Shown: positions 19,154 through 24,982 of the stretch, piece after piece
How the letters are laid out: each line of letters starts with the position of its first letter
How positions within the stretch are numbered: the stretch's first letter is position 1
Origin: Bdellovibrionota bacterium
Lineage (GTDB): Bacteria; Bdellovibrionota_C; UBA2361; JBGSMV01
Assembly (NCBI GenBank): GCA_041739995.1
Contig: JBGSMV010000045.1
Coordinates: 1-51,156 of the forward strand
DNA length: 51,156 nt
Direction: 5' to 3'
The notes under the pieces: model-generated
Databases searched by the model: none
Seen by the model: only the letters and a program-made list of their open reading frames with translations
Told to the model about the DNA's origin: nothing
Position numbers and translations under genes: made by a program

Positions 19154-19981
19154 TTACGGAGTACGGAACCCAAGCGAAGCGACCCGGCTGAAGCTGGCGG
19201 CACCTTGGCTGGCCTGCACGGAAGACCGTGAGAAGACCTGGAAGGCGCGTCGAATCTCAGTCGGAGAGTTCGACGGAGTGAGGATCCACTGCGGATCGAT
19301 TCCCATGTCCGTGAACACCTGTCGAAACAGTGCTTGCTGTGCGGGATCGTCTCCGATTCCCATCGCTGCCACGATGTGCATCTCCCGTTTCTGCATGTCG
19401 GTGACGATGGCACGCGCTTCGGCAATGCCGCGGCGCGAGCCTTCGTCCATGCCGTCGGTGACGATCAAAGTGGCGGTACGCACCTGAACACCCTGGAGCT
19501 TGAACTCCTCGCTCTTGGCGAGGACAGTCCCCAGAATCTCGATGGTCTTGTCGTAGAGCGGGGTGCCGCCGTTGGCGTCGTAGTTGTTCGAATCGAGCTC
19601 AGGGATCTGATCGATCCCACAGAAGCCCAGGGGATTGCCCTTGGCATCTCGAATCTTGCCACGGTTGAGCATGTCAACCAGCATCAAGATGTCGCTGTTC
19701 GACTTGGAACCACGCAGGGCTTTCATGACCTCGTTCGAGCCGTCACGAACCACCTGCGAATTTCCCGCGAAACGAATTGACCCCGAGTCATCCAGCTCCA
19801 AGGCGACAAGAAACGCCTCAGAGGACTGGAACGTGTCGGCCGCAACACCGAGTCCGGCCTGAATCTTCTGGCCCAAGTCGGGTGCGGTCAGCAGTGCGTG
19901 CGTCTGTGGAGAAATCTCTCCAGTGGATGCCGCCCCACCGAACACTTGCGCGACGTTGAGGGTGCTATTGTTGCTCGTCAT
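19154..19981 (-). CDS. vWA-domain protein, TerY/YegL-like
   Basis: Complete MIDAS: LDDSGS, GGTPLYD, IVTDG. AAGGA RBS before ATG 19981. The longer ORF-track start overlaps the upstream gene. Confidence 0.88.
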   Translation of the reverse strand: MTSNNSTLNVAQVFGGAASTGEISPQTHALLTAPDLGQKIQAGLGVAADTFQSSEAFLVALELDDSGSIRFAGNSQVVRDGSNEVMKALRGSKSNSDILMLVDMLNRGKIRDAKGNPLGFCGIDQIPELDSNNYDANGGTPLYDKTIEILGTVLAKSEEFKLQGVQVRTATLIVTDGMDEGSRRGIAEARAIVTDMQKREMHIVAAMGIGDDPAQQALFRQVFTDMGIDPQWILTPSNSPTEIRRAFQVFSRSSVQASQGAASFSRVASLGFRTP

Positions 19982-20084
19982 GTGCGAGTTCCTTTCTTTG
20001 TGTGGAATGAACACGGAAAACACGGATGCCCCGGCTATAGAACTGTTCTCACAGTCGTCTCCTACAGCCGGGGCCCTTGCGGCT

Positions 20085-21929
20085 TCACAGCCCCAACAGA
20101 GCCGGGTTGATGCCCGGCCAGGTGTGCATGGGGTCGGTGCTACGCACCACATGCATCCCCGCCTGGCGGAACCGGTCAAACGCGGCGTCGGCTTCGTCGG
20201 TGTAGTCGATGACGCCTGGCACCACCACAGAGGAAGTGCAGTCTTCAATCAAATACACCTTCTTGGCCAACGCCGGATCCTTCTTGTTGATGTCGTCCAG
20301 CAGATCGGCGATGGACCATGCCACGCAATGGCTCTTGGCCTGCCCCGTGATCGCGACGATGTCGTGATTGAGCAGTGCCTCGATGAAAGCCGTGTTGCGC
20401 TGAGCGATGGGCCGGCCGCCGAGCGTATCGGTGACCTCAGGTGAGAGCACCGAGTAGTTCTCGGTCAACGGATTGCCGCCCTTGATCTCCGGGTTGCTCT
20501 GCGAGCAGCGAGCGATGGTGTGGAAGAAGATCGCCTGGTCAATTGACGGCACCAGGGCGTGCTCGATTGACCCGAGCAACACATGGTACGGCCAGATGGT
20601 GAGCGAGTATTTGCCACGCCGCGCCAGTTCACGCGCATAATGCAGCGCGTGATGCTGAAGCGCCATCGCCTTGTTGGGGTCGCCGAGGGCGGCCCCTGCC
20701 ACCGAAGGATTCACCCGCCACACACCACGCTCGATATCCTCCAGCGAGATCTGAGAGAAGGGCGCCGGATGATTTCCGCGCTCGTCGACCCAGAAGACCG
20801 GATGGAAGATCTGATACGCGGTGTGCGTATCGAAGGTCGGGTAGATGTGGGTGATCACTTGAAGGTTGCGATAGATGAACTCGCACAAACGCCGAGAGTC
20901 ATCCACCGCGCCGTTCCCGCTGCGCCCACCGACGAACAGTGGCGAGCCGGGAATAGCGAAACCAATCTGGCAGTCGATGGGCATCAACGCCACGCGCAGC
21001 CGATCGTGTGCCGCCGCCTTGACGCCATGCGCACGCACGAAGTCGGCCGCTGCCGTTGCCGTGCTGTTGTAGTCCACGCGCCACAGCTCTCCTGTCTTGT
21101 TCGGATCGAACAAAGCGGGGGAGGGCAGCTCGTACATTTCCAGTTTGCGATTCATGGTCAGGCCTTTCCCTGCAGCGGCCTTTGCCGCAGCAGAATTGGG
21201 AATGGAGACTTCGATGTCGAGCAGGGTGAGCCCCTGCAAGTCGTCGAGCCTCATGTTGGGAACCAGGTACTCGGCGACACCACGAACGCCGGCGGCGTCA
21301 TAGGTGTAGCCGTCTCCGTGATAGAGCTCACGCAGATGCACCGAGTGGTAAAGGAAGGCACGGACCTCAACGAGAGTTCCGCGCGACTGTTGGAGGCGCT
21401 CATAGGTCATGAAGCGCACATCCTCGAGACCGAGTCGGTCGACGTCCTTGAAGGTGTAGCCCGCCAAGGCCTCGATCTGCTCCCAGCTGGTACGCTTTAG
21501 CGCCGCACGCTGGGCTTCGACTAGCGCGGCGACTGCCGGGTACACCGACACGACGGTGTCGACCACATGATCCCAGGTAGCGGGGACTGCGGGGCCGCCG
21601 GCTGGCCATACAGCCAGCTTAAAGCGGTTGCGTTCGTCCACCACCTTGCGGCGAATGTGATCGAGGGTGTAGCCGATGGTGATGAGCTGCTCATAGCCGG
21701 TTTTGCCCAGCAGCTCTTCGAGCCCGCAGCTGTCGAGCAGCATCACGATTTTCCTGCTGGGATCGTCGCTCAGCTTTTCGAAATCTGCGGGAGCCTTCCC
21801 GCGAATGAGGCGCCCCACCAAGCCCTGGGCCGCACCGCGGTCCGGGGTAGTGGTGCGCCAGGCCTTGAGAAAGCGGGTGCTGTCGGCACCCTGCACGGGC
21901 AAGCCGGTCTGAGTTGGTGTCTGCAACAT
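20085..21929 (-). CDS. Fusion of an unknown ~255-aa N-terminal domain with a nicotinamidase/isochorismatase-family cysteine hydrolase
   Basis: The C-terminal half has IDCQIGF, TFDTH, IWPYH, IKG and GQAKSHCV (Asp-Lys-Cys triad plus metal ligands). An AAAKAAAGKG linker joins the halves. AAGGA RBS before ATG 21929. Confidence 0.85.
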   Translation of the reverse strand: MLQTPTQTGLPVQGADSTRFLKAWRTTTPDRGAAQGLVGRLIRGKAPADFEKLSDDPSRKIVMLLDSCGLEELLGKTGYEQLITIGYTLDHIRRKVVDERNRFKLAVWPAGGPAVPATWDHVVDTVVSVYPAVAALVEAQRAALKRTSWEQIEALAGYTFKDVDRLGLEDVRFMTYERLQQSRGTLVEVRAFLYHSVHLRELYHGDGYTYDAAGVRGVAEYLVPNMRLDDLQGLTLLDIEVSIPNSAAAKAAAGKGLTMNRKLEMYELPSPALFDPNKTGELWRVDYNSTATAAADFVRAHGVKAAAHDRLRVALMPIDCQIGFAIPGSPLFVGGRSGNGAVDDSRRLCEFIYRNLQVITHIYPTFDTHTAYQIFHPVFWVDERGNHPAPFSQISLEDIERGVWRVNPSVAGAALGDPNKAMALQHHALHYARELARRGKYSLTIWPYHVLLGSIEHALVPSIDQAIFFHTIARCSQSNPEIKGGNPLTENYSVLSPEVTDTLGGRPIAQRNTAFIEALLNHDIVAITGQAKSHCVAWSIADLLDDINKKDPALAKKVYLIEDCTSSVVVPGVIDYTDEADAAFDRFRQAGMHVVRSTDPMHTWPGINPALLGL

Positions 21930-22012
21930 TTGAGGATTCCTTTTTGTGAGGGACATGAATTGAATCGCACGCGCGATTCTTTGAGTTTCCGGAGTTGGTA
22001 AGCACTTCGGGA

Positions 22013-24022: not shown

Positions 24023-24058
24023 TTGGCACCTCCTTATGTGTTCAACTAATGGGACCGG

Positions 24059-24089
24059 AAAAAAGAGGGCTCTCGAGAACGAGCACCTC
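24059..24089 (-). terminator. Putative intrinsic terminator between the PP2C and kinase genes
   Basis: Minus strand reads GAGG-T-GC-TCG-ttct-CGA-GA-GC-CCTC followed by TTTTTT: a bulged hairpin plus a U-tract. Confidence 0.45.
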
Positions 24090-24112
24090 ACTATGAATGC
24101 CTCACGGGACAC

Positions 24113-24982
24113 TCATGGTCCTGGATTTGGCTTTCTTCGAATGACGACCAACGAGGTGTCATCTTTCAGAAGTCCAGGGAAAAACTCAAAGGCGCCTTCG
24201 GTGTTGAGCCGCTTGACCTCTGAGTTGGCGAGAGCGAGTTGCCGACGAACTGCGTCTGGATTGCGGAAATACCGATCGTTCTCCCAGAATTGAGAGAGGC
24301 CCCCGAGTGGGGTCTCTCGTCCAGGAAGTGTTCTTGACTCGCCTGCAGCGCGAATGAGCGCAGACAGCCCGTCGGTACCAATGAGCAACGACTGGAGCTG
24401 CGAAGTCTCCATTGTGCAGTTGACGCGAAACGAGAGATCCTCTTCACTGAGGAGCTTTCGAGGGAGCAGGCGATACGCTGGATAGCGCGGCTCGTTTCCC
24501 TCATCCGGAGTGAGCTCAGAGAACTCTCCGTTCACTGCGTAAACCCCGTCGCCCACAGACACTACCTGAGTAACTTCAGGAGTGATGAGAGCGACGAGTG
24601 CAGTGCACAAAAAATAATCTCCGATTACCTCGGAAAAACTTCCTCCTCCAGCCATGTCGTAAGCAAGGTTTGCGATACGTGCGGTGTACTGGCGCATGAC
24701 GCGTTCCCAGAACGCCGCTTGAGCCTCCGGATCCCCGCTGAGCGAGCGCTCGTCGAGGAGTGACCGGATGATGGATTGAAGGAGTCGTACGGTTAACTTT
24801 GCCCCCACCTCAGAGTGAGGGCGAGAGCCACAACCGTCGGACACCACTGCAATCAACGTAGAATCAGTGACAAGCAGTCCCGTACCATCGTGATTGTTGC
24901 AGCCGCGAACGAACCCATCGTGTCCAACATGATCTCGGCCTACGATTGTTCCCGCGGCAAACTCAAATTGATGAGTAAGCAT
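24113..24982 (-). CDS. PP2C-family phosphatase, YegK/TerY-P-type
   Basis: GRDH, NNHDG, VVSDGCGSRPHSEVGA, VGDG, GTDGL and DDTS. AAGGAGG RBS before ATG 24982. Confidence 0.9.
   Translation of the reverse strand: MLTHQFEFAAGTIVGRDHVGHDGFVRGCNNHDGTGLLVTDSTLIAVVSDGCGSRPHSEVGAKLTVRLLQSIIRSLLDERSLSGDPEAQAAFWERVMRQYTARIANLAYDMAGGGSFSEVIGDYFLCTALVALITPEVTQVVSVGDGVYAVNGEFSELTPDEGNEPRYPAYRLLPRKLLSEEDLSFRVNCTMETSQLQSLLIGTDGLSALIRAAGESRTLPGRETPLGGLSQFWENDRYFRNPDAVRRQLALANSEVKRLNTEGAFEFFPGLLKDDTSLVVIRRKPNPGP

Follow-up and report, generated by a model that had tools for sequence, protein, structure and literature searches.

The 51,156-nucleotide stretch of DNA analyzed here (the window) is one contig (C18; JBGSMV010000045.1) of an 81-contig, 91% complete assembly of a Bdellovibrionota bacterium (GCA_041739995.1). 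At positions 19154-24982 its minus strand carries four co-directional open reading frames (ORFs), which encode a PP2C-type phosphatase, a Ser/Thr kinase, a fusion protein that ends in a nicotinamidase-like domain, and a protein resembling the von Willebrand factor A domain (vWA). Following the order PP2C, kinase, fusion and vWA, the genes are separated by 90, 83 and 103 nt, and a purine-rich Shine-Dalgarno-like run stands ahead of every start codon (AAAAGGAGG, ATAAGGAGG, AAAAAGGAA and AAAGAAAGGAA). ORFs, coordinates, gaps and Shine-Dalgarno-like runs all agree with a preliminary description of this DNA, made from the sequence alone, which had proposed a four-gene operon (Table 1). Promoter-like sites occur at chance level (3 found against 3.1 expected), and the one at 25151..25179 is listed as a position only, with no functional evidence. 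Terminator-like sites number 14 against 7.0 expected; the same scan places none directly after the vWA stop codon. The sequencing runs listed as containing this stretch are four DNA runs, all of one study, with no RNA run among them.

Table 1. Features of the four-gene operon and its upstream region (window coordinates)
Feature	Position	Strand	Remarks
PP2C-type phosphatase	24113..24982	-	289 aa, first gene of the operon; Pfam PP2C_2
YegI-like kinase, whole gene	22013-24022	-	669 aa
Ser/Thr kinase domain, residues 1-330	23033..24022	-	BLASTP to E. coli YegI
Kinase C-terminal domain, ~340 aa	22013..23032	-	Conserved across cassette loci (tblastn)
Fusion protein, whole gene	20085-21929	-	614 aa, two domains
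Fusion N-terminal domain, residues 1-255	21165..21929	-	Widespread, mostly stand-alone family, ~230 aa
Long-form nicotinamidase-like domain, residues 256-614	20085..21164 (incl. stop codon)	-	Foldseek and invariant residues
vWA-like protein	19154..19981	-	275 aa; full MIDAS pattern, conserved Ser-rich C-terminal tail
Promoter-like site, ~170 nt upstream of PP2C start codon	25151..25179	-	TTGATA-17-AAGAAT, 9/12 matches

The fusion protein has no match in Pfam (even at E<=10, the Isochorismatase family PF00857 included), NCBIfam, PADLOC or sequence searches of the PDB. Its homologues number more than 4,327, and most of them stand alone, with a length of about 345 aa and about 60% identity. Full-length fusions of 555-620 aa make up 38 of the 120 best matches (query included). 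The remaining 82 are free-standing, 343-360 aa long and about 60% identical to the query, of which they cover the C-terminal 54-57% and nothing more; they carry source names such as 'isochorismatase' or 'nicotinamidase-related amidase'. Because the homologues split into these two classes, the protein is read as an N-terminal domain (N-domain) joined to a C-terminal domain (C-domain). The nearest relative of the fusion gene encodes a metagenome protein with 83% identity.

An AlphaFold2 model of the C-domain reached 88 on the pLDDT scale of local model confidence. When it was compared with solved structures by Foldseek, ranks 1-23 were all nicotinamidases or pyrazinamidases (best match 2wta, E 2e-10, TM-score 0.76 on the target), and the matches included those of Acinetobacter, Drosophila, Leishmania and Pyrococcus, yeast Pnc1 and M. 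tuberculosis PncA; other isochorismatase-like hydrolases appeared from rank 26 onward only. D319, K483, C535, D367, H369 and H449 are invariant in 47 sequences, the metal-type motifs reading D367-x-H369 and W446-P-x-H449. Going by the order of motifs in PncA and Pnc1, we take D319/K483/C535 to be the Asp-Lys-Cys triad and D367/H369/H449 the Asp/His metal site, so that the triad and the Asp-x-His plus His metal pattern would be shared with these enzymes and in the right order, as the fold is. One fused homologue matches PF00857 at E 7.8e-5, under the cut-off. The nicotinamidase fold of the modelled C-domain is confirmed by its structure and invariant residues, without support from sequence families, and nicotinamide would be its substrate. 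The enzyme differs from PncA and Pnc1 in length (about 345 aa against about 180-215 aa), being extended at its N terminus and carrying about 70 inserted residues, in lacking a Pfam Isochorismatase match, in lying within a signalling triad in a large proportion of genomes and, in the window, in being fused to an extra domain. A complex prediction for the nicotinamidase domain and the vWA protein scored 0.00 in both runs, made without controls, and speaks neither for nor against binding.

The other three genes are remotely homologous to YegI, PphC and YegL of E. coli. The predicted phosphatase is securely a PP2C enzyme (Pfam PP2C_2, E 3.4e-17, its 63 bits clearing the cut-off of 24); the Asp-bearing motifs SDGCG, GDG, GTDG and DDTS can be read from its sequence, and it matches E. 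coli PphC/YegK over 89 aa (BLASTP E 5e-4). The kinase matches Pfam Pkinase weakly (E 8e-4, under the cut-off) and aligns with E. coli YegI over 275 aa at 25% identity (BLASTP E 2e-9), a region spanning the G-loop GQGGEAEVY, the catalytic loop GDFNYMN and the metal-binding DxD motif IDADS. Weak matches to PD-T4-6 (PADLOC) and LanL-kinase (NCBIfam) were also recorded, the NCBIfam scores lying far under their cut-offs. Judged by their sequences, the kinase and the phosphatase are specifically YegI- and PphC-like. The C-terminal region of the kinase, about 340 aa, is 28-41% identical to the same region in other cassette loci (tblastn); it has no CxxC pairs, no family match and no PDB sequence match, and E. 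coli YegI does not align with it in BLASTP.

In the vWA-like protein, D64-x-S66-x-S68, T140 and D176 are invariant or nearly so and have vWA-like spacing, which gives the full pattern of a metal ion-dependent adhesion site (MIDAS), and the Ser-rich tail FQVFSxSxxxASQ is conserved. The family has 1,154 matches and its nearest Atlas clusters are named VWFA. A profile of the family aligns weakly with YegL in hhalign (E 8e-4, probability 25%), across the Thr and Asp motifs; the 120 YegL homologues listed are nearly all from E. coli, with 90-100% identity. Unlike YegL homologues, which match PF00092 and PF13519, the window protein misses the Pfam VWA models, and it has no NCBIfam, PADLOC or PDB match (phmmer, profile); the best Pfam VWA score in the family, in one of 31 members, is E 0.046. 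Its identity as a vWA protein is probable from the MIDAS pattern, the VWFA-named Atlas neighbours and the weak YegL profile match.

A vWA-type protein, a PP2C and a Ser/Thr kinase within one operon recall the TerY-P systems of Anantharaman et al. (2012, cited in PMC11090510), in which, according to passages of PMC11090510, a TerY-like vWA protein and a PP2C accompany a kinase that bears a fused zinc ribbon. Passages of PMC11090510 and PMC7699616 describe versions with an OB fold that act as stand-alone antiphage systems. The window operon departs from this plan in several ways. A nicotinamidase gene lies between kinase and vWA, giving the order PP2C-kinase-X-vWA, and the kinase ends in the conserved tail of about 340 aa, whose lack of CxxC pairs sets it apart from the zinc ribbon of those passages, though it may still have an OB fold. 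Furthermore, the neighbourhoods of related cassettes are occupied by genes of nicotinamide adenine dinucleotide (NAD) metabolism, unlike the restriction or tellurite surroundings of TerY-P. Both the TerY-P-type triad and the nicotinamidase embedded in it had been proposed in the preliminary description. They are borne out, the first by homology to E. coli YegI, PphC and YegL (weak for the vWA part) and the second by the agreement of fold model, Foldseek and invariant residues. A full-text literature search, covering main texts, found no description of a nicotinamidase inside a kinase/PP2C/vWA triad; we rate this placement as new, the TerY-P-like triad itself being already known.

The four genes form a conserved, horizontally mobile module. 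Among relatives, 41 genomes were searched (G000 included) and seven had a match to the fusion, in five of them to the C-domain alone; all five keep the order PP2C-kinase-Nic-vWA, where Nic is the nicotinamidase-like gene. In a scan of species representatives, which gave 595 relatives, the best 80 loci were classified. The full cassette is present in 21, kinase and vWA on a contig that ends before the PP2C position in three, vWA only in six (four of these with less than 3.2 kb upstream) and PP2C only in one; the enzyme is solitary despite adequate flanks in 39, and the flanks are too short to judge in ten. The hosts of these best loci comprise cyanobacteria, several candidate-phyla bacteria, a Woesearchaeota metagenome-assembled genome (MAG), Actinomycetota, Tectimicrobiota and others, and the cassette reaches very distant phyla at 55-62% identity. 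Eleven viral loci were found starting from the vWA gene; 10 have Nic, all 11 the kinase and nine the PP2C. A vWA-first search of the window's own phylum returned 13 loci in 11 of 124 genomes, and nine of the 13 show the Nic-containing cassette order. In a set of 44 cassette loci plus the window, in which ORFs were clustered and scanned against Pfam and PHROGs, a PP2C gene lies upstream of the kinase in 31 of the 45 loci. Repeated as it is in many unrelated genomes, this order goes far beyond what chance would give, and its recurrence in distant phyla rules out chance adjacency. Conservation of the enzyme beside the triad had been set beforehand as one test of the preliminary description, and the two were found together in relatives, species representatives, viral contigs and loci of the phylum.

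Several variants of the cassette were seen in passing. Nic-free triads with a PP2C of 399-404 aa, a kinase of 825-837 aa and a vWA-like gene lie at L123 4385-9048 and L125 3766-8379; the genomes concerned, G053 and G052 respectively, also hold the full four-gene cassette. A PP2C homologue stands directly upstream of Nic in an Oscillatoriales locus (L055 7153-9023), with no kinase or vWA within 8 kb. Uma2-family ORFs are inserted between Nic and vWA in three cyanobacterial loci without a nearby kinase and PP2C (L018 8885-9862; L019 327-956 and 2301-2930; L026 980-1588), the Pfam Uma2 match having been checked in L018 and L019 327-956.

The neighbourhoods of the cassette connect it to NAD. At least one NAD or ADP-ribose gene stands within about 3.5 kb of it in 18 of the 45 loci. 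Besides the ADP-ribosylglycohydrolase genes described below, these are an NrtR-family gene (NUDIX plus NrtR winged helix) in nine (five checked by Pfam), cytidylyltransferase-like (NadD-like) genes in five, one of them fused to NAD kinase, nicotinate phosphoribosyltransferase (NAPRTase) in four, NAD synthase (NadE) in one, and QRPTase with a NadB-like oxidase gene in one, the archaeal MAG. As with PncA and Pnc1, the enzyme gene in other genomes shows linkage with pncB, nadD and nadE. Passages of PMC2330246 and PMC9503650 describe NrtR as an ADP-ribose-responsive regulator of NAD metabolism, and pncA, pncB, nadD and nadE are among its targets in the part of Rodionov et al. (2008, PMC2330246) that deals with them. 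The cassette resembles NrtR regulons in that the nine NrtR genes come with pncB- and nadD/nadE-like genes. Kinase, PP2C and vWA genes do not appear in the NrtR regulons of the main text of PMC2330246, where the terms 'phosphatase' and 'von Willebrand' have no occurrence; the window's genome differs from such regulons in giving no match to the NrtR winged helix. The co-occurrence with NrtR/NUDIX genes that the preliminary description had named for survey is therefore present elsewhere, in these nine loci. For the solitary enzyme, no shared neighbourhood emerged across 38 loci except a NAPRTase-sized family in six. NAPRTase (PF04095) is encoded in all five genomes examined that have the solitary enzyme, and in one of them it lies two genes upstream of the enzyme, within that NAPRTase-sized family.

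Seven of the 45 loci, all cyanobacterial, contain one or two genes of the ADP-ribosylglycohydrolase family between PP2C and kinase (two loci checked). These loci and the nine adjoining NrtR-type Nudix-helix-turn-helix (HTH) genes raise the alternative that the cassette is a variant of the systems predicted in section 3.8 of PMC9503650 to counter ADP-ribosylation by invaders. Those systems are centred on an ADP-ribosylglycohydrolase and have a regulator of Nudix-HTH or WYL type, hydrolases and phosphatases for processing the ADP-ribose set free, and chaperones of the vWA kind. Such a variant would work with the nicotinamidase and the kinase/PP2C pair as added processing and control parts and the vWA protein as a peptide-binding chaperone. 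We hold this to be distinctly unlikely. The core glycohydrolase and the regulator, though present in cyanobacterial cassettes, are absent from the window operon, which contains no ADP-ribosylglycohydrolase gene and no Nudix-HTH or WYL regulator; the NrtR winged helix is missing from the window's genome as noted above; the glycohydrolase is restricted to one group of cassette loci; and nicotinamidase, isochorismatase and PP2C have no occurrence in the main text of PMC9503650.

The viral records with the cassette are 42-436 kb long; one carries terminal repeats and has a completeness rating of 100%, and two are classed as proviruses. Phage-type genes near the viral cassettes encode an HNH endonuclease, RNA ligases, RtcB, a PIF1 helicase and a methyltransferase, and in large phages the cassette adjoins genes for NAD synthase, NAPRTase and adenylyltransferase-like proteins. 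A NAPRTase-family gene was found in all five viral records tested, and none of the five matched Terminase_6N, a test that is uninformative for divergent large phages. The 436-kb record with terminal repeats encodes, just upstream of the cassette (L098 50-2101), a protein of 683 aa that has shoulder and repeat domains of the major vault protein.

Phages are known to rebuild NAD. According to the abstract of PMC13464706, NARP1 and NARP2 recycle ADP-ribose or ligate nicotinamide mononucleotide and NARP3 consists of PnuC and a NadR-like enzyme, and passages of PMC11662467 describe jumbo phages with pncB-nadD-nadE clusters and without this cassette. The large phages found here resemble such phages in holding the cassette beside NAD synthase, NAPRTase and adenylyltransferase-like genes, and differ in that the corresponding passages of PMC13464706 and PMC11662467 describe no nicotinamidase with a kinase/PP2C/vWA triad. 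Because very large phages carry the cassette beside genes of the Preiss-Handler pathway, its phage copies point to NAD rebuilding rather than NAD depletion. One may go further and regard the cassette as phage-derived cargo for NAD reconstitution, a counter-defence that makes NAD from nicotinamide by the Preiss-Handler route, of which the window copy would be a domesticated or remnant transfer. The published phage pathways, the viral records and one clade of the enzyme tree that mixes viral and fused forms fit such an origin. We nevertheless consider it very unlikely, as no phage genes surround the operon in the window, relatives of the same family keep the cassette at different loci together with host genes, no NAPRTase was found in the window's lineage, and the viral records, with no Terminase_6N and two proviruses among them, may in some cases include host DNA.

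The reading that we favour, and to which we give about an even chance, is that the cassette is a phosphorylation-gated module that clears nicotinamide and recycles NAD as part of an NAD/ADP-ribose response. A switch of the YegI/PphC/YegL type would be wired to a long-form, metal-dependent nicotinamidase, with the C-terminal domain of the kinase as a sensor-like part. NAD-consuming reactions would release nicotinamide and ADP-ribose, and the enzyme would deamidate the nicotinamide at a time set by the kinase/PP2C pair; the vWA protein may be the phospho-target, a scaffold or a sensor. Where a nicotinate phosphoribosyltransferase is present, as in the phages, candidate-phyla bacteria and some others, the product would feed NAD resynthesis by the Preiss-Handler pathway. 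In the window's lineage the output would be the removal of nicotinamide itself, which may relieve product inhibition of NAD consumers or make NAD cleavage irreversible. As for the N-domain fused to the enzyme, its probable part is to bind or generate an NAD-derived substrate. The data show the conserved gene order, the PP2C, the YegI-like kinase, the nicotinamidase fold, the MIDAS pattern and the NAD-gene neighbourhoods; what we infer is that nicotinamide is the substrate, which proteins are phosphorylated, in which direction control runs and what the N-domain does.

Several observations count against this reading of the cassette. In the window, no NrtR, NAPRTase or other NAD gene adjoins the operon. 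NAPRTase-family matches (PF04095) are absent from all six genomes of the lineage that were searched (91-94% complete), the window's own and five cassette-bearing relatives; for this reason salvage does not close in the lineage, where nicotinate has no obvious route back to NAD as judged from gene content. Elsewhere, the window's genome encodes QRPTase and one canonical isochorismatase. The vWA assignment lacks a significant family or structure match. Four of the 13 triad-related loci of the phylum are without Nic, two being PP2C-kinase-vWA triads and two pairs of a kinase and a weak vWA, and three of the four have a longer kinase. The vWA gene was found nowhere in the five genomes with a solitary enzyme, and a tree of 121 enzyme sequences interleaves the cassette, solitary, viral and fused forms; at least 10 changes on well-supported branches are needed to account for the solitary label. 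Because the enzyme is solitary in many genomes, occurs without the vWA gene and has its forms interleaved on the tree, regulation by the triad is not intrinsic to it.

The preliminary description had taken the operon for an NAD-linked defence or conflict system. In such a system of the TerY-P kind, the triad would sense phage infection and unleash NAD destruction, with the N-domain cleaving NAD and the nicotinamidase blocking its rebuilding. We keep this as a rival because of the TerY-P homology, the patchy, mobile cassette and, in the window's lineage, the metabolic dead end and the possibly NAD-using fused domain. The triad proteins share remote homology with YegI, PphC and YegL, and TerY-P-like modules are the stand-alone antiphage systems of the passages cited above. 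The spread is patchy, from a vWA gene in 11 of the 124 genomes of the phylum to cassettes in very distant phyla, and the lack of NAPRTase in all six lineage genomes would make nicotinamide deamidation a dead end here. The only recurrent structural likeness of the N-domain is to ADP-ribosyltransferase folds that use NAD. The fusion gene region also has a G+C content of 0.61 against about 0.53-0.56 around it; for the 2-kb bin 20001-22000, which holds most of the gene, the value is 0.611, nearly all of the window's remaining bins lying at 0.51-0.56, and the gene may have been acquired separately. The surroundings speak otherwise. No recognisable defence gene, integrase or transposase flanks the operon within the window, where the flanks are housekeeping genes; the neighbours elsewhere are genes of NAD biosynthesis, salvage and NrtR; large phages themselves carry the cassette; and the N-domain is missing from all but two of the 45 clustered loci. 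All in all, the cassette does not look like a classic NAD-depleting phage-defence island and looks more like regulated NAD recycling. We regard defence as unlikely, and the overall interpretation of the preliminary description stands as to triad homology, embedded enzyme, conservation and NrtR co-occurrence, and lacks support as to defence.

The search for known defence systems with PADLOC, proposed earlier as a check, carries little weight. No model matched the enzyme, the vWA or the N-domain family, and the E. coli YegI/PphC/YegL control likewise missed the TerY-P models; PADLOC was dropped as a test for TerY-P since this positive control failed. In the control locus itself (L104, E. coli K-12 yegI-pphC-yegL), PADLOC 2.0.0 gave no TerY-P match at E<=0.001, and the kinase matched PD-T4-6 and MkoA weakly.

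The N-domain belongs to a family of 602 representative clusters (E<=1e-3), mostly stand-alone proteins of about 230 aa. It matches no Pfam or PADLOC family, and an Atlas search gave no usable match. Within the phylum it occurs in three of 124 genomes, among housekeeping genes. Profile searches of the clustered cassette loci found it only in the window and in L098, which ruled out a separate N-domain as the fifth cassette gene, the fifth family being NrtR. In other proteins it is joined to a calcineurin-like phosphoesterase (three), an inositol-monophosphatase-family enzyme (one) or a nicotinamidase. R40, W119, R190, G205, G207 and E220 are invariant. Although its model is of high confidence (pLDDT 92), Foldseek found nothing at E<=0.001, whether among viral models or solved structures; such weak matches as recur are NAD enzymes of the ADP-ribosyltransferase fold. 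By alignment ranges only, R40 and E220 would come near the residues that we take, from the 9K/129G variant, to be the catalytic Arg9 and Glu129 of the toxin, which is a lead and not a finding. It is conceivable, if rather improbable, that the family is a very divergent, unrecognised ADP-ribosyltransferase-like enzyme that cleaves NAD or transfers ADP-ribose, that its fusion partners are hydrolases consuming its products, and that the fusion makes NAD cleavage irreversible under a switch of the YegI/PphC/YegL type. The nicotinamidase would then take nicotinamide, and the phosphoesterase and inositol-monophosphatase-family partners the ADP-ribose side. If true, this would give TerY-P-type triads a concrete biochemical output.

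Triads of the YegI/PphC/YegL type are widespread yet enigmatic, and through the cassette a large branch of them is connected with a defined enzyme and with the NAD/ADP-ribose regulon. The switch becomes testable through phospho-dependent nicotinamidase activity and through the pools of nicotinamide, nicotinate and NAD. The long-form nicotinamidase family has thousands of members outside the coverage of Pfam and may be the nicotinamidase of many cyanobacteria and deltaproteobacteria. Very large phages with the cassette and Preiss-Handler genes may represent a fourth route of phage NAD reconstitution, and the N-domain is a new domain family that may use NAD.

The housekeeping genes that flank the operon in the window encode an acyl-CoA synthetase, CoA-transferase subunits, TonB-like, MerC-like and LemA/TPM proteins and a TonB-dependent receptor. 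On the same strand as the operon, 304 nt downstream of the vWA gene, lies an ORF of 364 aa (17755-18849, minus strand) that has no Pfam, NCBIfam or PADLOC match and no homologue adjoining the cassette in any other locus examined. Four successive large ORFs of 1,022, 908, 627 and 827 aa on the plus strand (59-10586) have no Pfam match at E<=1e-4. Also on the plus strand, 34189-41175 encodes an RHS-repeat protein of 1,439 aa and, after it, an ORF of 884 aa that matches nothing in Pfam, a pair that may be a polymorphic-toxin locus.

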